This document shows positions 10,506 through 19,120 of a stretch of DNA of 45,942 nt, one piece after another. This stretch comes from a bacterium (GTDB taxonomy: Bacteria > JADJOY01), in the NCBI GenBank assembly GCA_046331705.1, contig JAXLQJ010000021.1, forward strand, positions 62,001-107,942. The letters run 5' to 3'. The translations under genes were made by a program, and so were the position numbers. Under the pieces are notes generated by a model. The model made no database searches, was not told the DNA's origin, and saw nothing but the letters and a program-made list of their open reading frames with translations. Position 1 is the first letter of the stretch, and every line of letters starts with the position of its first letter.

Positions 10506-11588
10506 TCAGAGTCCCACCGCGGTCCACGCGTCATCGATGGCCTTCGCTTCCGCGGAGCTGGCGCCGAACAAGCCCCCCGCCACCATCCGGCACTGCGCGG
10601 CGCAGTCCGCGAACGAGCTGGTCGGAAGCAGATCGTGCATGACCTTGTACCAAACGCGGCCCGCCTTGTCCCAGGCGTGCCCGCCGATCTTGGTCGCGGC
10701 CAAGTAGAACGCGTGATTCGGGATGCCCGAGTTGATGTGCACGCCACCGTGGTCCGCCGAGCCCTTGTAGCGATTCGCGTAGTGCTTGGGCTGCGGATCG
10801 TCACCCAGATCCGGGTCGTTCTGGAATGCGGTGCCCGGTGCCTTCATGCTGCGCAGCGCCGTGCGAGTCGGGGCGGGAACCAGGATCTCCTTCCCGATCA
10901 GCCAATCGGCCTTGGCTGCGGTCTGCTTCTTCTTGTACTGCTTGACCAGCGAGCCGAACACGTCCGCGAAGTGCTCGTTCAACGCGCCGGGCTCGTTGTG
11001 ATACTCGAGGGCGCTGCCGAACTGCACCACGCCGTGCGTCAGCTCGTGGCCGATGACGTCGAGCGACAGCGTGAAGCGACGGAAGATGATGTCGTCTCCG
11101 TCGCCGTACACCATCTGCCGGCCGTTCCAGAAGGCGTTGTCGTAGCCCTTTCCGGCGTGAACGCTGCTGACCAGCGTCATCCCCGCGTCGTCGATCGAGT
11201 TCCGGCCGAAGACCTTGTTGTAGAGCTTCCAGGTCACCCCGGCGCCGTTGTACGCCTCGTCCACGGCGGGATCACCGGACTTGGGGTCACCTTCCGAACG
11301 GATCAGCTTGCCGGGGAGAAACCCGTCGAACTCGGCTGGCTCCTGGCTGCCTTGATCGTAGATCTCGCGGCGCACCTTCGCCTTGGTGGGCGCCGCCCCG
11401 GCGTACGGCGTCAAGGCTCGCGGCATGGCGCCCGCCAGCGACCGGAACGCGCGAATGTGACTCGAGGCCTGCAAGCTGCGCAGTGCCGCCTCTCGGACCT
11501 TCTTGTTGCCGGACTGCGTCAGTCGCTCGGCCATGAACGGCGGAACGATGCAATGGACGGGATTCCTGCGCTGCTCGTGCTCGCACAT
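10506..11588 (-). CDS. M4-family (protealysin-like) zinc metallopeptidase
   Basis: Short propeptide with HCIVPPFM; NAFWNG; HELTH zinc motif; GALNEHFAD; GGVHINSGIPN; no signal peptide. Confidence 0.95.
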   Translation of the reverse strand: MCEHEQRRNPVHCIVPPFMAERLTQSGNKKVREAALRSLQASSHIRAFRSLAGAMPRALTPYAGAAPTKAKVRREIYDQGSQEPAEFDGFLPGKLIRSEGDPKSGDPAVDEAYNGAGVTWKLYNKVFGRNSIDDAGMTLVSSVHAGKGYDNAFWNGRQMVYGDGDDIIFRRFTLSLDVIGHELTHGVVQFGSALEYHNEPGALNEHFADVFGSLVKQYKKKQTAAKADWLIGKEILVPAPTRTALRSMKAPGTAFQNDPDLGDDPQPKHYANRYKGSADHGGVHINSGIPNHAFYLAATKIGGHAWDKAGRVWYKVMHDLLPTSSFADCAAQCRMVAGGLFGASSAEAKAIDDAWTAVGL

Positions 11589-11978
11589 GCGTGATCTCCT
11601 CGGCCGACAGGCGCGACACCAATCGCGCCCGTCGTGTCGTTGGTGGCTCTCGGGGTATCCACGAAGCCGCGTGAACGCGAGCGACAGCGCTGCGTGCTGG
11701 TGCGAACCAGCACCGCCCCTCGTCCGATTTGCCCCGGGTTTCCGTGCCGCTCGGTTCCGCCGTGGATCACCGTGGGGACTACAAGCTGCGTGCCAGCGCT
11801 CGAGGCGACACGGATACGGGATTCATTGCAATTCCGTTGATCTTTTCCATCCAGCTACGGACGGCGTGCTCACCCCTCGTTCGCGACTTGAACGGCTCCG
11901 TTTGATTCCCGAACGAGCGGGATGCGTGCCCCGCGCGGGAGATCCCGCGCCAAGGTCGCCGAGGTCGCGCGGACCCAG

Positions 11979-12275
11979 GGAGGCGATGCACGCCGCGGCG
12001 GGACGCCGTCCCCGAGAACCCGTACGCGTGGCCGGTCTCCGTGGGCCGGGTCAAGGCCATCGACTCGCTGCGACGGTGCCCGCGCTTGGACGCCAACCGA
12101 TCGAAGATCGCCGCGAGCGTGGCCGCGGCCAGCGAGTCACCGGTGGACGATCTCACCCTCGCCGACGACAGCCTGCGCCTCGCCTTCACCTGCGGCATCC
12201 CTCACGCACCCAGAGCCCGAGCGCGGATGTCTCGAGCACCGCCTCCGCGAGCGGTGAGCCTCCCCTTCCACCGCG
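11979..12275 (+). pseudogene. Decayed, internally deleted duplicate of the ECF sigma gene at 8694-9935
   Basis: 12011-12200 aligns by eye to 8868-9059 (CCCGAGAACCCGTACGCGTGG...CTTCACCTGC). It then jumps to sequence matching ~9876-9953, encoding LTHPEPERGCLEHRLRER* versus [18 protein letters not shown]. The two parts are in different frames. Confidence 0.85.
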
Positions 12276-12653
12276 ACACCCATCGCTGAGTCGCTTGCTC
12301 CACCGAATTCCCGCCTCGGCTTCGTCCAGGAAATCCGAGATCGCTGCGAAGCGTTCACGAAGCGAACTGCATCGAGCGCCGTCGTTCGATCGTCGAACGC
12401 TGCGCGACGACCTCCGTTCGAGAGACTGAGTCACGGCGGGCAGTTCGATGGAGTGAATCGCGGCGTGGGCTTTGCTTTGAGCCGAGCCACACGAGGTCGA
12501 ACGCAAAGCTTCGACGCGCACCCCACCGAGCCGCAGCGGGGCACCACAGCTCACGCGGCGCATCGAGTTCGACTCGTGTGCGACCGCCAAGACCAGAGCG
12601 GGTCCCAGGGCGGGACTCCCTCAAACCGCGATCCGCTGAGGAGGAGACGACCA

Positions 12654-14042
12654 ATGGCGACGACAGAGCTGGACAAGGCACGGGCCAGGATTCGACCGAT
12701 CAAGCAGCGCGTCGAGGACGAGCTGCTCGCGCGTCCCGGTGTGACCGGAGTCGATATCGCCCACAAGGTCTCGAAGGGGCAGAAGACCGACAAGGTGGCG
12801 ATCGTCGTCTACGTGAAGAAGAAGAAGGCGAAGAGCGCGCTCAAGGCTGCGGAGTTGATTCCCACCGAGATCGACGGGGTCGTGACCGATGTGGTCGAGG
12901 AAGAGATCGTGCTGCATCCCGCACGGGTCGCGCTCGCCGAGGTTGAACCCATGGTGGACGCGGCGACATACGCCACCTTGCAAGGCGGAATCAGCATGGG
13001 ACCCTGCCGGTCCGTTCACCTGGAACCGCCGGACGTGGAAGAGCCGGGCGATTACATCTTCGTCGGCACGCTGGGCGCGATCGTGCGAGACCGGGACACC
13101 GGCGCAGCCATGGCGCTCACGAACTTCCACGTCGCGTGCGTCGACTCCAGCTGGTCCATCGGCGACGGCATGACACAACCGGGTCGTGTCGACGGCGGCA
13201 CGTGCCCGGGCGGAGAATTCGGAAGCCTCACGCGCGCCGCGCTGAGCGAGCACGTTGACGGCTCTGTCATCACCCTCGACAGCGGAAGGACGTGGGCCTG
13301 CCAGATCGCCGAGATCGGCAACGTCAACGGAACGGCTACGGCTGTGGCCGACATGGCCGTGCGCAAGCGCGGCCGCACCACGGGCCTGACCTACGGAACC
13401 GTGGCATCGGTCGACTACAGCGTTGCGATTCCGTACGGCAACGGGCTGGGGACGCGCACACTGAAGAACCAGATCCGCATCACCGTCGACTCGACGAAGA
13501 GCACCCAGTTCGGTGACCACGGCGACTCGGGGTCGGTGGTGGTGGACGGAAGCGGCAACGTCGTGGGGCTTTATTTCGCCGGCAGCACGACCGGCACCAC
13601 GGGGGTTGCAAACCCGATCCAGTTCGTCCTCGACGAGCTGAGTGTCGACATGTGCACCGGCGGCATCCGGATCGTGACCAGACCCGTGATCTGCGATCCA
13701 ATCTTCACCAAGCCGGTCGTGTGCGTGACCACCAAGCCGAACACGTGCGGTCTCGTGACGAAGCCATCGATCTGCACAATCCTCACGACACCCAAGGTGT
13801 GCATCGTCACCAAGGCCAGCTGTCCAATCGTGACGCGTACCTGTCCGATCGTCACCCGCGCCTGTCCCGGCCCCGACCCCGGCCCGCTCGGGCGCGCATC
13901 CGAGGGAGGCGCGCTCGATCCGCGCGCCTGGTACGGCTCGCCGAGCGGCGACGCGATTCACGATGCATTCTGGGAGGGCTACTACGCCGCCCTCGAGTGC
14001 GCCAGCGACCTGGAGGACGAGGTCAAGTGTGGTTCCTGCTGA
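12654..14042 (+). CDS. NAL1-like trypsin-fold (S1) serine protease with a C-terminal Thr/Cys repeat tail (candidate fused RiPP precursor)
   Basis: ATG at 12654 after GAGGAGGAG; 462 aa; no signal peptide. N-terminal prodomain GVTGVDIAHK..AIVVYVKKK..IDGVVTDVVE. Triad motifs TNFHV, HVDGS and GDSGS; KRGRTTGLTYG. Tail has eight T-X(2-4)-C units. Confidence 0.88.
   Translation: MATTELDKARARIRPIKQRVEDELLARPGVTGVDIAHKVSKGQKTDKVAIVVYVKKKKAKSALKAAELIPTEIDGVVTDVVEEEIVLHPARVALAEVEPMVDAATYATLQGGISMGPCRSVHLEPPDVEEPGDYIFVGTLGAIVRDRDTGAAMALTNFHVACVDSSWSIGDGMTQPGRVDGGTCPGGEFGSLTRAALSEHVDGSVITLDSGRTWACQIAEIGNVNGTATAVADMAVRKRGRTTGLTYGTVASVDYSVAIPYGNGLGTRTLKNQIRITVDSTKSTQFGDHGDSGSVVVDGSGNVVGLYFAGSTTGTTGVANPIQFVLDELSVDMCTGGIRIVTRPVICDPIFTKPVVCVTTKPNTCGLVTKPSICTILTTPKVCIVTKASCPIVTRTCPIVTRACPGPDPGPLGRASEGGALDPRAWYGSPSGDAIHDAFWEGYYAALECASDLEDEVKCGSC
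13671..13865 (+). repeat. Tandem peptide repeat [IL/V]-x-T-[KRT]-(x1-3)-C, eight units, within the protease tail
   Basis: IVTRPVIC, IFTKPVVC, VTTKPNTC, LVTKPSIC, ILTTPKVC, IVTKASC, IVTRTC and IVTRAC, read directly from the translation. Confidence 0.9.
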
Positions 14043-15114
14043 GATCCCGGGCGTTCCGCCCGCACGGATACTCGCATCGCTGGTGCGCGCCGGCCTCGTC
14101 GACAGCAGGACGGCTTGTGAGGGAGCGGTGTCCTTCATCGATCTGTCGCGATCCAACCCCGTGCATGTCGTTGCGATCGACACGACACCGGCGTTCGTCG
14201 TGAAGCAGAACGGTCCCGCCATCGATGGCGAGCCGCCGGTCGCCGTGGAACGCGAGGTGTACCGGTGGCTCGCGCGCTACCCCGCCCTCGCGGAGATTGC
14301 ACCGTCCTTCGTCCCGACCGGCGCGGGCGAGGGCGGTGAGCATTTCCTGATCACGCATGCCGTGGCAGACGCCAGCACGCCCCACGCATTCTGGCGCGGA
14401 GACGATCGCGAGATCCGTGGGCTCACGATCGCGTTGGCGCGCACACTGGCGCACCTTCACGGCTCTAGCGCTCGGGCGGCGCAGCAAGCTCACCGTCCTA
14501 GCGCGCGGCGTCCCTGGGTGCTCGGCCTACCTGCGTCGACGGCACCCGATTTCGTGACGCGCAACCCGAGCGCCCACGAGCTGACGGTACGCTTGCGCAA
14601 TCTGCCTTGGCTCGTCGAGCTGCTACGAGCGGCCGACGCGGCATGGTGCGCACGGTCGCTGATGCATGGCGACGTGAAGTGGGACAACGTGCTCGCCCGG
14701 CGCGGTACGCACGGCGACGGCTCGAGCGAATGGCGCATCTGGCTGGTGGATTGGGAGCTGGCGGGCTGGGGCGATCCCACCTGGGATGTCGCGGCGCTGG
14801 TCGAGAACGTGCTGAGCCGGTTTGGGCTCTTCGACGGAGGTCTCGACGTGCACGCGGCCGGGCACGATGTGGCGCTTGCCATATCCACCTATTGTGAATC
14901 GGTGGACGCGACCATCGCGCTGCGCCTGGAGCAACTGATCCAGTTGGTCGCCGTGCGTCTCGTACAGGTTGCGATCCAGCTCGCAGCGATGTCCGGTATC
15001 GGGATCGAGGTGAGCGCAGACCTCGGGCTAGTCCTCGACGTTGCACGCTCGATCGCGGCCGAGCCGTCGCGATGGATCGCAGACATCATCGGGCCGCAGA
15101 ACGCGGGGCGGTGA
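14029..15114 (+). CDS. APH/choline-kinase-family phosphotransferase (LanK-like)
   Basis: GTG at 14029 overlaps the protease 3' end, with GGAGG/GAGG upstream. Motifs FVVKQ, LAHLH, LMHGDVKWDNV (Brenner motif) and VDWELAGWGDPTWDVA. Confidence 0.88.
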   Translation: MVPAEIPGVPPARILASLVRAGLVDSRTACEGAVSFIDLSRSNPVHVVAIDTTPAFVVKQNGPAIDGEPPVAVEREVYRWLARYPALAEIAPSFVPTGAGEGGEHFLITHAVADASTPHAFWRGDDREIRGLTIALARTLAHLHGSSARAAQQAHRPSARRPWVLGLPASTAPDFVTRNPSAHELTVRLRNLPWLVELLRAADAAWCARSLMHGDVKWDNVLARRGTHGDGSSEWRIWLVDWELAGWGDPTWDVAALVENVLSRFGLFDGGLDVHAAGHDVALAISTYCESVDATIALRLEQLIQLVAVRLVQVAIQLAAMSGIGIEVSADLGLVLDVARSIAAEPSRWIADIIGPQNAGR

Positions 15115-16046
15115 TGACGGCGCTTCCACCGAGCGTCCACGGAGACTTCCTCGCCGCGTTGGCTGCGGCGAGGACCGCCATCCACGAATGTAGTGGTGTG
15201 GAAGCACTTGCGGTCCGGCTCTACCAGCTTTGGTACTCGGCACCGGTCGCCGCAGACGGTCCTCCGTTCGGCATCCCGCCTCGCCTGGATTCGCTACTAC
15301 GGTCCGCACACGCAGGTAGCGGCATCTGGGAGAACGGCTGGGAGGTCGAGCACACCGGCCGCGATGGGCAAGTGATCGCGCGCAAAGGGGGTGAGCGGCG
15401 CGTGCTCCATCGTTGCGATTACATCGTCCCGGAACACCCGGGACTCGTCGCCAAACCAGGCGAACACGTTCGCGTGTCGCTGCGGTACGACTACGTGGAC
15501 GTGGAGGGTGGCTGGTGGTTCACGCATTCACCCGGTTGGCAGCTCGATGCGCCCCCGGGACCTCTGGTGCGCTTCTACTGGAACGTCGGCGTCGCCCAAG
15601 TGGCGACGGTGGTCGAGCGCATCACGAGCGCGATGCTCTCCAACACGACCCCGTGGATGCTCAAGTGCGCGACGGATCCCGATGCCTATCGCCGCGCGGA
15701 TGTCGTGGTGCTCTACCTGCTACGGTCGGCGGTCGTGAGTCTCAGCCAACGGCTTGGCGAGGTTCGCGCCCATCTGCGACCGGTGCTCCGGGCGGGCTCT
15801 CCACCGCTCACGTTCGGTATCGCGCGGGGCGTTGCGGCGTGCGACGACCCCGCGACCGGTGCGAGCTTCGGTCAACATCGCTGCACGCTCATCGCCGAGG
15901 CCGTGTTGGGCACCGACGCGGACTCCACCCTGGCCGAGTCACCCGACGCCTTGCTCGACGCGATCGTGATGCGCTTCCGCGATGCGGGCATCCCGCCGGA
16001 TCGGCCCTACTTGGCAGACAAGACGCGCCGATTGCCTTGGGAATGA
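15114..16046 (+). CDS. HopA1-like domain protein (LanY-like phosphoSer/Thr lyase)
   Basis: ATG overlaps the kinase TGA. Motifs RFYWNV, WMLKC, YRRADVVVLY and DPATGASFGQHRC, as in HopA1-family proteins paired with APH kinases. Confidence 0.8.
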   Translation: MTALPPSVHGDFLAALAAARTAIHECSGVEALAVRLYQLWYSAPVAADGPPFGIPPRLDSLLRSAHAGSGIWENGWEVEHTGRDGQVIARKGGERRVLHRCDYIVPEHPGLVAKPGEHVRVSLRYDYVDVEGGWWFTHSPGWQLDAPPGPLVRFYWNVGVAQVATVVERITSAMLSNTTPWMLKCATDPDAYRRADVVVLYLLRSAVVSLSQRLGEVRAHLRPVLRAGSPPLTFGIARGVAACDDPATGASFGQHRCTLIAEAVLGTDADSTLAESPDALLDAIVMRFRDAGIPPDRPYLADKTRRLPWE

Positions 16047-17287
16047 GCGACATGCACGGCGCAAAGAACCTCCTGGCCCTCGCTTCATCACTGGCCGAGT
16101 CGTTGGCCGCGACCGCGGTGGTCTCCGCCGACCAGTGCACGTGGCTCACAGCGACGGTCGACCTGTCGAGTGGCGAGCGGCGCATCCTGCACCGCACCGG
16201 TGATCCATCGCTCTACCAGGGCGATGCCGGCATCGCCTGGGCGCTCGCGCACGCATCGCGTGCCCTCGATCGTTCGGATCTCGGCGCCCTGGCGCGCGCC
16301 GGTGCCCGCTGCGCGCTGCGGCGCGCCAGCTCATGCGCAGGGCCAGGACTCCACGACGGCACGAGCGGCGTCGCAACGGCCGCGCTGCAGGTTGCGGCGG
16401 TGCTTGACGATCCTGTCTTACGGCGCGACGCGATTGACCTACTGTCGGAAGCCGCGACCTCACAACCAAGCGGCAGCGACATCATCACCGGCGCGGCCGG
16501 CTCGCTCCTCGCGATGCTCTCAGCCCACGAGCAGACGAACGACTTGCGCTGGCTCGACCGTGCCGTCGCGCTGGGAAAGGCCGTCGTGGACGGGGCGCAG
16601 CGGCTCGCTTGGGGCTGGTGCTGGCCGGCGGGCGAGGAGCGCGAGCCAGGGCTCTGCGGGCTGGCGCACGGTGCCGTGGGCGTAGCGTGGGCGTTGGAAG
16701 AGCTCCACCAACTCACCGGCGACGAACGATTCAGACTGGCTGCGAACCATGCGTTGCGCTACGAGCGAAGCTGGTTCGATCGACGCCGCAGCAACTGGCC
16801 CGATCTGCGCGTCGGCGTGGGGGCGACCGATGGGGCGCCCTGCTTCGAGAGCTGGTGGTGCCACGGAGCCGTGGGCGAGGGACTAGTCCGACTGCGACTT
16901 CACGCTCTGGGCCGGTCGGATCCCGCAATTCTCGCCGAAGCCGGCGCAGCGTTTCAGTGTGCCCTCGACGAGGCCATCAACTCGATCGACGCCGCCGAGG
17001 CTCCCATCCATGGCCTCACGCTCTGTCACGGCTTGGGTGGGACGGTGGAGCTCTTTCTCATGGCCCACGCCGTGCTCGGCGAACAAGAACACCTCGTGAC
17101 CGCTCGCTGGATCCTCGATCGCGCGCTGGCCGCCCTCGGCGACGACGCCGAGCGCTGGCCAGACGGGCTAGGAACCGCGAGCGCAGCCCCAGGACTCATG
17201 ACTGGCGCAGCCGGCGCACTCACGGTCCTGCTGCGAGCGATCGCGCCGACGTCCATTCCGAGTGCCGTGCTCTTCCCTCGCGCGTGA
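16043..17287 (+). CDS. Stand-alone LanC-like lanthionine synthetase (cyclase)
   Basis: ATGA overlap with the previous gene. Seven GxxG repeats: LYQGDAG, LHDGTSG, IITGAAG, LAHGAVG, WCHGAVG, LCHGLGG and LMTGAAG. Zn ligands (WC, CH) and the catalytic His (AHG) are intact. Confidence 0.9.
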   Translation: MSDMHGAKNLLALASSLAESLAATAVVSADQCTWLTATVDLSSGERRILHRTGDPSLYQGDAGIAWALAHASRALDRSDLGALARAGARCALRRASSCAGPGLHDGTSGVATAALQVAAVLDDPVLRRDAIDLLSEAATSQPSGSDIITGAAGSLLAMLSAHEQTNDLRWLDRAVALGKAVVDGAQRLAWGWCWPAGEEREPGLCGLAHGAVGVAWALEELHQLTGDERFRLAANHALRYERSWFDRRRSNWPDLRVGVGATDGAPCFESWWCHGAVGEGLVRLRLHALGRSDPAILAEAGAAFQCALDEAINSIDAAEAPIHGLTLCHGLGGTVELFLMAHAVLGEQEHLVTARWILDRALAALGDDAERWPDGLGTASAAPGLMTGAAGALTVLLRAIAPTSIPSAVLFPRA

Positions 17288-17623
17288 GTGCTCCGGCGGT
17301 GTCGGCTCCCTCAGCCATCCTGCGCGGCTGGCCGACGCGGCGTGCCGCCCGTAGCCGAGGCAACGAGCCAAGCGACGACCGTGCTGCTCCGTGTGCTTCG
17401 GGCTCGTCCCCGCTTCGTCGCACGGACAAGGCCGCAATGGGCTGAGGCACCGAACTGCGGGGCAGCGAGAGGTGCCGGGTCGAGGTCGCGGCGGCACGAG
17501 TCGCGCGTTGAGCAACGACGCCCTCGACCTCGCGGGCGATGGTCGACGCCGTCCAACGCGCAGCAACCGGCTCGGGTGGCGCGCGGTACGCGAGGATCCG
17601 AGCGGGTGTCCGCAGGCCGCGCG

Positions 17624-19112
<1,489 letters not shown>

Positions 19113-19120
<8 letters not shown>

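Follow-up and report, generated by a model that had tools for sequence, protein, structure and literature searches.

A four-gene class Vb-type lanthionine cassette with the C-terminal tail of a NAL1-like protease as its candidate substrate

Overview of the four-gene system

The window analysed here is a stretch of 45,942 nucleotides (nt) of a bacterial contig (GCA_046331705.1, JAXLQJ010000021.1), and four overlapping genes at its positions 12654–17287 encode a NAL1-like serine protease with a long Thr/Cys-repeat tail, an APH-fold kinase, a HopA1-like lyase and a LanC cyclase. It is proposed, with a probability of about three in four, that this cassette is a self-contained lanthionine system of the class Vb type, in which the protease, encoded first in the operon, would supply the substrate with its C-terminal tail. 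The gene set is complete, the catalytic motifs are intact, and in related loci the tail and the enzymes strictly co-occur. The chemistry on the tail would follow that established for class V enzymes and LanC. The LanK-like kinase would phosphorylate the Thr of each hydrophobic-Thr-(Lys/Arg)-x-x-x-Cys unit, the LanY-like lyase would eliminate the phosphate to give dehydrobutyrine, and the zinc LanC would add the Cys lying 3–5 residues downstream, closing a methyllanthionine ring. The disordered tail of ~70 residues would in this way come to carry as many as eight small methyllanthionine rings, lined up without overlap.

The Thr/Cys tail and the C-terminal helix

The protease gene (12654–14042, plus strand) starts with ATG and encodes 462 residues. 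Residues 334–411 (13653–13886), delimited by composition, spacing and conservation, form the Thr/Cys-repeat tail, which is the proposed lanthionine core. Of the 78 residues of this segment, 9 are Cys and 14 are Thr, compared to 4 Cys in the preceding 333-residue domain. An earlier sequence-only reading of the window had noticed eight regularly spaced Thr...Cys units here, and counting bears it out: the last eight Cys of the tail, C347 to C404, all have a Thr 3–5 residues upstream that is mostly followed by Lys or Arg, which gives eight copies of the unit named above, and the gaps between successive Cys of the tail are 13, 10, 8, 9, 9, 7, 7 and 7. When the tail was shuffled, Cys spacing of equal regularity was obtained in 31 of 20,000 shuffles, and at least eight Cys with a Thr at −3 to −6 in 564 of 20,000. 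A recent DNA duplication (21-nt period, 2.3 copies) covers the last two units only, which points to an old and maintained pattern in the tail.

The same arrangement is found throughout the family. A search of 5.8 billion proteins, with 8000 candidates scored, gave 934 homologues at E ≤ 0.001; the best 120 are nearly all full length, and the tails of 113 of these were examined. All 113 are rich in Cys (6–10 each, median 9), the gaps between Cys peak at 7–10 residues, and 92% of the 994 tail Cys have a Thr or Ser at most 6 residues upstream. The residues that most commonly follow Thr are Arg (336 times) and Lys (235 times).

The core is followed by a Pro/Gly-rich linker with a conserved Tyr-Gly (13887–13961, delimited in alignments A3 and A6) and by an amphipathic helix with the motif F-W-x-G-Y-Y-A-A-L-E and an acidic end (residues 437–459, 13962–14030). 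Y427 of the linker is at least 90% conserved in A3, the next Gly is invariant in A2 (17 sequences) and A6, and so are the helix residues G442, Y443 and A446. In all 113 family members the motif reads F-W-x-G-Y-(Y/L)-A-A-L-E, again with an acidic end. AlphaFold predicts the tail as disordered, with a predicted local distance difference test score (pLDDT) below 50 for residues 353–422, and the helix at 437–459 as a block with pLDDT 85–91. We infer that this helix would act as a docking element, a follower rather than a leader, because it is conserved, is duplicated together with a second repeat block in some relatives, and is analogous to the leader helix that binds CaoK (PMC9486802). A complex prediction with kinase, lyase and tail residues 385–462, run without controls, gave a best interface score (ipSAE) of 0.01 and has no bearing on helix docking.

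Several variants of the tail were observed. The protease of the window ends with three extra Cys after the helix (residues 449, 459 and 462; 13998–14039), which occur in no aligned homologue, and many tails of the Knoellia/Janibacter type end in Gly-Gly-Ala instead. Double tails were seen in loci L020, L024, L037, L038, L044 and L073, in which a further block, made of Cys-Pro-Ser/Thr units, comes after the Thr/Cys block and a degenerate helix, and the helix motif then recurs; these tails reach ~250 residues with 19–24 Cys.

The modifying enzymes

The LanK-like kinase (14029–15114, plus strand) matches Pfam APH with E 1.6e-13 and 51.4 bits (cut-off 23.2), and its profile matches the LxmK chain 9dk1_A with E 2.4e-7. 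K59 (the ATP lysine), H213-G214-D215 and N220 of the H-G-D-x4-N motif, and the metal Asp D241 are invariant in 40 cassette kinases. The HopA1-like phospho-Ser/Thr lyase (LanY-like; 15114–16046, plus strand) reaches E 1.8e-17 and 64.2 bits with Pfam HopA1 (cut-off 22.7), and its profile matches the LxmY chain 9dk1_B with E 6e-19; PDB entry 9DK1 is the solved LxmK–LxmY dehydratase complex (PMC12141560). R153, K184, R194 and Y201 are invariant in 38 lyase sequences. Their spacing of +31, +10 and +7 is close to the +32, +10 and +7 of R187, K219, R229 and Y236 in CaoY, catalytic residues whose importance was demonstrated by mutagenesis (PMC9486802). The zinc-type LanC cyclase (16043–17287, plus strand) matches Pfam LANC_like with E 3.8e-43 and 147.9 bits (cut-off 23.2). 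All 20 of the 20 cassette LanCs compared share H209, C273, C328 and H329, and we take these residues to have the roles known from NisC, namely zinc ligands (Cys and Cys-His) and the catalytic His.

The sequence-only reading had named an APH kinase, a HopA1-like protein and a LanC-like protein, and all three identities lie above the Pfam cut-offs. The roles it gave them also agree with established chemistry, since class V LanK/LanY pairs dehydrate Ser and Thr (PMC9486802) and a LanK/LanY/LanC trio acts in the SmoA pathway (PMC11186320, PMC12328550). By their motifs, all three enzymes look active and of a known kind.

The last step admits a different outcome, in which the tail is dehydrated and the LanC-like protein closes no intramolecular rings; with an external thiol, spontaneous rings or none at all, the product would be dehydrobutyrine-rich or thiol-capped. 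There are precedents for this, as ring formation in class Va can do without a cyclase (PMC11186320) and mammalian LanC-like proteins are not lanthionine synthases (PMC5247676). However, the Cys of the 113 tails equal the Thr in strictness of conservation and in regularity of placement, the putative zinc ligands and catalytic His never vary in the 20 LanCs, and the LanC domain is nearest to lanthipeptide cyclase domains (E 3.1e-61 with the LanM cyclase part, TIGR03897). Such an outcome is considered very improbable.

Co-occurrence of tail and enzymes

The sequence-only reading had set a check beforehand, according to which proteases should have Thr/Cys tails only where the three enzymes are adjacent. 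For this comparison a scan of one genome per species gave 210 relatives, of which the best 80 protease loci were kept. A Thr/Cys tail with the helix is present in 49 of the 80, loci that share descent and are not independent rows, because the cassette is a mobile four-gene unit. The other 31 comprise 22 with long Lys/Asp/Glu-rich (K/D/E) tails, 7 with tails of at most 44 residues and 2 with broken frames. By tblastn, kinase, lyase and LanC lie directly downstream and in the same order in 44 of the 49 tailed loci, so the four-gene order recurs as expected; of the five exceptions, L006, L028 and L037 run off their contigs, and L017 and L073 lack the kinase match only, which blastp at the level of open reading frames (ORFs) recovered. 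The ORF-level search gave 48 of the 49 loci with the kinase, 47 with the lyase and 45 with LanC. Among the loci with one or more enzymes missing, the contig ends before or within the missing gene in L006, L028 and L037 and within LanC in L009; as far as the contigs reach, all 49 have the three enzymes directly downstream. None of the three enzymes was detected within ~8 kb in the 31 loci that have no Thr/Cys tail (0/31). The check thus came out as 49 tailed loci against 0 of 31 others, and a Thr/Cys tail on a protease that has no such enzymes beside it, looked for in the 80 loci, was not encountered.

A FastTree phylogeny of the protease domains adds a historical aspect. Two short-tailed, enzyme-less groups (L047/L050/L051/L056 and L048/L049/L071) nest among the tailed proteases, and four K/D/E-tailed loci also fall inside the smallest clade holding all tailed loci, with a weak support of 0.63 for the joining node. 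Because enzyme-less groups nest in the tailed clade, the tree suggests that the tail and the enzymes were lost or swapped jointly, and more than once.

An 803-residue metagenome protein (P0068), in which protease and kinase appear as one chain, was considered as a natural fusion and rejected. Its helix region is replaced by a sequence that looks out of frame, so a frameshift or gene-call artefact is more likely.

Small open reading frames around the cassette

Lanthipeptide clusters normally have a small LanA precursor and often a protease, and Eyles et al. described short-peptide families beside HopA1–LanC clusters (PMC8153245). It is conceivable on these grounds that the trio modifies a separate small precursor, encoded elsewhere or missed, that the tail is structural or metal-binding, and that the protease is a leader peptidase. 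The window itself offers one candidate, an ORF of 82 residues upstream of the protease (12041–12289) with a coding-like GC content at third codon positions (GC3); it is conserved in 0 of the 49 homologous loci. The other window ORFs of at least 25 residues, the four genes excepted, are likewise without relatives in the 49 tailed loci, clustering of all ORFs outside the cassettes revealed no recurrent small Cys/Thr-rich ORF, and the overlapping or abutting genes leave no room within the cassette. The remark of the sequence-only reading that no convincing small precursor ORF lies nearby was therefore borne out, also in that the 49 homologous loci contain no separate conserved short precursor.

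Tails existing on their own were also sought. A word-based search of limited sensitivity for stand-alone tails of 30–253 residues among the 5.8 billion proteins gave 28 candidates, of which none scored. A profile of the tail alone had 31 matches among 1.84 billion representatives, and the short matches that were inspected have their first residue within the protease or the tail and are therefore regarded as N-truncated protease fragments from contig ends. The sole conserved Thr/Cys-rich segment at the cassette is the tail of the 462-residue protease. A metal site is also not what the tail resembles, with a Cys every 7–10 residues and an upstream Thr-Lys/Arg for each. Considering further that the tail tracks the enzymes (49 loci vs 0/31) and that a protease-free Cys/Thr-repeat carrier precedes the same cassette, a separate precursor is very improbable.

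A second repeat carrier

This protease-free carrier emerged among the 31 matches of the tail profile, four of which (537–846 residues) belong to a different family. Its members have a conserved N-terminal domain of ~95 residues and 3–8 Cys/Thr-rich blocks parted by Gly-rich, aromatic spacers. The N-domain has no match in Pfam or NCBIfam; it is confidently predicted as a small beta-rich fold, for which no PDB match was found at E ≤ 0.001. A profile–profile comparison of the tail module of the proteases (A6) with the N-domain of the second carrier (A8) gave a probability of 0.1%, and no homology is claimed. A metagenome scan yielded 41 loci of this carrier (L084–L124), encoding proteins of up to ~1180 residues and 124 Cys, with 100 to more than 1000 residues of Cys/Thr/Pro-rich repeats (e.g., L089:6340-9888 and L091:8001-9386).

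The neighbours of the second carrier were scored with hidden Markov models (HMMs) built from the protease-type cassettes, and the best E-values were 2e-37 for the kinase, 3e-48 for the lyase and 3e-72 for LanC. All three are directly adjacent in 14 of the 41 loci; L117 has them on the opposite strand, and in the other cases they lie downstream of the carrier gene and on its strand. Ten further loci have the kinase, or kinase and lyase, before the contig ends (24 of 41 with at least the kinase), and 12 of the 41 are cut within the carrier gene or at most ~700 nt after it. In a quick tree of LanC sequences, 32 protease-type cyclases are parted from 12 of the second type by a single branch with a Shimodaira–Hasegawa-like approximate likelihood ratio (SH-aLRT) support of 100. 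As both carrier types precede the cassette, its common denominator is a Cys/Thr-repeat segment one gene upstream. The presence of the cassette behind a second, unrelated carrier independently supports the tail as the probable substrate, and together with the co-occurrence it speaks for the sequence-only reading, in which the tail of the protease was named as the substrate of the enzymes.

It was also considered that the protease cuts other cellular proteins and that the trio modifies the released fragments, the tail being unrelated to the chemistry. Such a supply of fragments has a parallel in the ATP-grasp branches 7 and 8, which are linked to peptidases of several families and have no detectable precursor, and for which Makarova et al. 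suggested that the peptidases supply the peptides (PMC8939145); the intact triad of the protease would suit it as well. It does not account, however, for the joint presence and absence of Thr/Cys tail and enzymes, or for the same cassette standing behind a non-protease carrier with similar repeats. This is held to be very improbable, and the least probable of the alternatives weighed here.

The protease domain and the fate of the tail

Residues 1–333 (12654–13652) comprise a NAL1-like N-domain and an S1 serine protease domain, assigned from AlphaFold and Foldseek. The model has pLDDT above 90 over residues 1–335. In a Foldseek search of the PDB, chains of rice NARROW LEAF 1 (NAL1) take ranks 1–34 (E 1.3e-18 to 8e-14, 360–391 columns), with a match that spans both the N-domain and the protease domain, and alpha-lytic proteases come next. 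The catalytic residues His159 (13128–13130), Asp202 (13257–13259) and Ser292 (13527–13529) are invariant in 17 of 17 sequences of alignment A2; among the 114 sequences of A3, H159 and D202 are invariant and S292 is at least 90% conserved. The S1/NAL1-like protease of the sequence-only reading therefore stands as far as the fold and the triad are concerned, and does not as far as the Pfam families NAL1_N and Trypsin_2 are concerned, which stay below their cut-offs. A precomputed PF25819 (Nal1_C) assignment is present on many of the protease homologues.

NAL1 is thus the best structural match over both domains and shares the triad, but it differs in having neither a Thr/Cys tail nor modifying enzymes, and the sequence identity is ~20%. 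The plant protein is a hexameric cage protease (PMC12012508). The bacterial protein was modelled as a monomer, so its likeness to NAL1 refers to the monomer. In a plasmid collection, only tail-less homologues of the protease domain were found, such as a Bacillus protein of 334 residues with no modifying enzymes nearby.

Two fates of the modified tail are envisaged, and the odds between them are roughly even. The stapled tail may be kept on the protease as a protease-resistant regulatory appendage, or it may be trimmed off by the protease itself or by an adjoining S8 subtilase, which is encoded at 28 of the 49 loci and was not found in this genome. Proteolytic processing is favoured by the fusion of a protease to the core and by the S8 subtilase and CHAT-TPR genes upstream in those 28 loci. 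Against an exported antibiotic speak the absence of a conserved transporter or immunity gene at these loci, the triad, which is under selection, and the relatives with other tails or none.

The S8 subtilase and the CHAT-TPR protein lie just upstream of the cassette, mostly on the opposite strand, in several actinobacterial families. The loci include L007–L009, L011–L014, L016–L018, L020, L024, L026, L027, L029, L034, L035, L038, L039, L041, L042, L046, L053, L064, L067, L073 and L080. The Pfam matches of these neighbours have E 1.6e-15 (S8 subtilase) and E 3.1e-28 (CHAT). Both are absent from the tail-less loci, except for weak matches in L045, and from the window, and a search of the window's own genome for relatives of these actinobacterial S8 and CHAT proteins found none at E ≤ 1e-6.

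The relatives with long, Cys-free K/D/E tails show a different neighbour, a protein of 240–276 residues encoded 6–75 nt downstream (e.g., L059:9353-10180). These loci are L055, L057, L059, L061–L063, L065, L066, L068–L070, L072 and L074–L079, and the downstream protein was found in 19 loci by tblastn and in 21 by clustering. It belongs to no Pfam or NCBIfam family and has no sequence match in the PDB; in the ESM Atlas it neighbours the MvdC/MvdD ATP-grasp peptide maturases, with template modelling (TM) scores of 0.72–0.74 and a feature score of 0.91. As a lead only, it may be the ATP-grasp "branch 8", which is truncated and peptidase-linked (PMC8939145).

A broader reading joins these observations, and as a whole it is tentative and rather unlikely. 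It supposes that bacterial proteases of the cage-type NAL1-like kind have their tails made into attached, protease-proof ring arrays by co-encoded macrocyclases, which would be a form of enzyme engineering and not the making of a natural product. As a pseudo-substrate that is tethered and cannot be cut, the tail would then gate or inhibit the protease up to its removal, for which the neighbouring S8/CHAT proteases are one example; the K/D/E tails with the ATP-grasp-like protein would represent a second chemistry, and the giant Cys/Thr-repeat proteins a third use. Each predicted ring would enclose the Thr-derived 2-aminobutyrate (Abu), then Lys or Arg and frequently Pro after it, a geometry that recalls the Thr-Lys reactive loop in inhibitors of the Bowman–Birk/SFTI type.

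Arguments against the proposal

Several points weigh against the tail as the substrate of a class Vb-type system. Phosphorylation, dehydration and thioether rings on the tail are predictions from comparative genomics. The co-occurrence points to functional coupling and not to the molecule that is modified, and much of it reflects the shared descent of a mobile four-gene module. The conserved helix comes after the core, while all characterised recognition elements of class V are N-terminal leaders (PMC9486802). Unusually for a lanthipeptide cluster, the cassette is not accompanied by a conserved exporter, immunity gene or dedicated leader peptidase. In five loci of the second carrier (L112–L115 and L123), 2.1–7.7 kb of downstream DNA contains none of the enzymes. 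As for the individual proteins, the kinase scores 31.4 bits (E 1e-7) with the NCBIfam LxmK equivalog NF038156, whose cut-off is 315, and the protease scores 21.2 against 27 for NAL1_N and 17 against 27.6 for Trypsin_2. Finally, because its triad is conserved and related proteases bear other long tails or none, the protease has a job of its own and is more than a leader.

Relation to known systems

The pathway of SmoA was reportedly described by Pei et al. in JACS in 2022. A free LanK/LanY pair with a dedicated LanC defines class Vb, of which SmoA was the sole characterised member as of 2024 (PMC11186320, PMC12328550). The cassette shares with it the three free-standing enzymes, namely an APH-fold kinase, a HopA1-like lyase and a zinc LanC, with catalytic motifs intact. 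The difference lies in the substrate: SmoA is a small precursor with overlapping rings (PMC11186320, PMC12328550), whereas here it would be the tail of a folded protease of 462 residues, with eight tandem non-overlapping units, a helix after the core and no leader before it. The class Va pairs LxmK–LxmY (9DK1) and CaoK–CaoY are homologous to the kinase–lyase pair, and the Arg/Lys/Arg/Tyr set of the lyase is kept with a CaoY-like spacing. Class Va, however, has no LanC and uses LanX, LanD and the formation of aminovinyl-methylcysteine (AviMeCys) (PMC11186320, PMC9486802); LanX and LanD are not in the cassette, and its kinase is not an LxmK equivalog (31 vs 315 bits).

The association of these enzymes has also been noticed before. 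Eyles et al. (2021) found 20% of HopA1-like proteins close to LanC-like proteins, or in fusion with them, and proposed that the HopA1–LanC clusters are lanthionine synthetases, with short peptides found by RiPPER as precursors; the parts of that paper considered here mention no protease-borne core (PMC8153245). Class IV LanL performs the same chemistry with lyase, kinase and zinc-LanC modules (PMC9486802), but in one polypeptide and with a kinase of the protein-kinase type, in contrast to three proteins and an APH-type kinase here; the LanC of the cassette matches NF038150 with E 3.3e-31. In borosin methyltransferases and BURP cyclases, the core is likewise the C-terminal tail of a folded enzyme (PMC8429565). 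There, the modification is installed by the fused enzyme itself; here, a protease takes the place of that enzyme and the modifiers are three separate proteins.

Since the class Vb trio and the HopA1–LanC association have been reported, the chemistry of the trio is already known. What is new is the proposed substrate architecture, in which the tail belongs to a folded protease whose triad is intact and a helix comes after the core. Neither a protease-borne lanthipeptide core nor the giant second carrier was found described in the searched literature, in agreement with the sequence-only reading, which knew of no protease-fused lanthipeptide precursor; the supplements of PMC8153245 and PMC9486802 may list such loci. 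Earlier mining of class V took ORFs below 110 residues (PMC9486802) or short peptides from RiPPER (PMC8153245), and for this reason the protease-tail family would be invisible to such surveys.

Genomic setting

The sequence-only reading gave four same-strand genes with overlapping junctions, and each junction was re-read as claimed. The GTG start of the kinase at 14029 falls inside the end of the protease gene, whose stop codon is 14040–14042; TGATG at 15112–15116 combines the kinase stop with the lyase start, and ATGA at 16043–16046 the LanC start with the lyase stop. A Shine–Dalgarno-like GAGGAGGAG was read from the sequence at 12638–12646 (plus strand), 7 nt 5' of the protease ATG. Upstream, ~1 kb with no conserved gene (11589–12653) separates the protease from a divergent gene, and this gap contains one terminator-like hairpin (11816–11837). 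An Rfam scan of 11400–17800 gave just two sub-threshold, chance-level matches, and a promoter and terminator scan of the same region found no more than in shuffles. By eye alone, the flanking genes resemble a thermolysin-type metalloprotease with an HExxH motif (10506–11588, minus strand) and a Ser/Thr protein kinase (17624–19120, minus strand); neither is conserved beside the cassette elsewhere, and the flanks differ among the 49 tailed loci. In PADLOC, which covers known anti-phage defence, the four cassette proteins match no family at E ≤ 0.01.

The GC3 of the cassette is 0.77–0.85, below the 0.88–0.92 of the neighbouring genes. The tailed protease was not found in four congeneric genomes (74–90% complete); one congener and one genome of a second genus of the family have distant protease-domain matches only (E 1e-22 and 2e-16), and the own genome contains no second copy of any cassette gene. 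The closest cassette enzymes are those of a Solirubrobacterales metagenome-assembled genome (MAG), with a LanC that is 55% identical. The low GC3, the absence in congeners and the Solirubrobacterales-like enzymes are consistent with a horizontal acquisition of the cassette.

At least 86% of the sampled words of the window are contained in 14 DNA runs from activated-sludge, wastewater and digester metagenomes, two of which may be the source of the window DNA. Contigs from four sludge metatranscriptome libraries, belonging to four studies, are identical or nearly identical to the window, 15 of the 19 showing no difference at all, and span the protease, the tail, the protease/kinase junction (13945–14322) and the kinase/lyase junction; LanC lies outside the coverage of these 19 contigs. 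They are a weak hint that the cassette is transcribed, as carry-over of DNA is possible in such libraries.

Implications

If the proposal is correct, lanthionine chemistry would act on the tail of a full-length, active-looking enzyme and on giant repeat proteins with more than 100 Cys, and the line between natural products of the RiPP kind (peptides made by the ribosome and modified after translation) and the post-translational modification of proteins would be blurred. Lanthipeptide mining that relies on small precursors would overlook this family, which numbers several hundred proteins at the least. The four-gene system is directly testable, and the helix behind the core is a candidate "follower", a C-terminal element by which class V enzymes may recognise their substrate, and would be useful for engineering. 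The finding also suggests a possible explanation for peptidase-linked, "precursor-less" macrocyclase loci, in which the precursor may be the peptidase's own tail.

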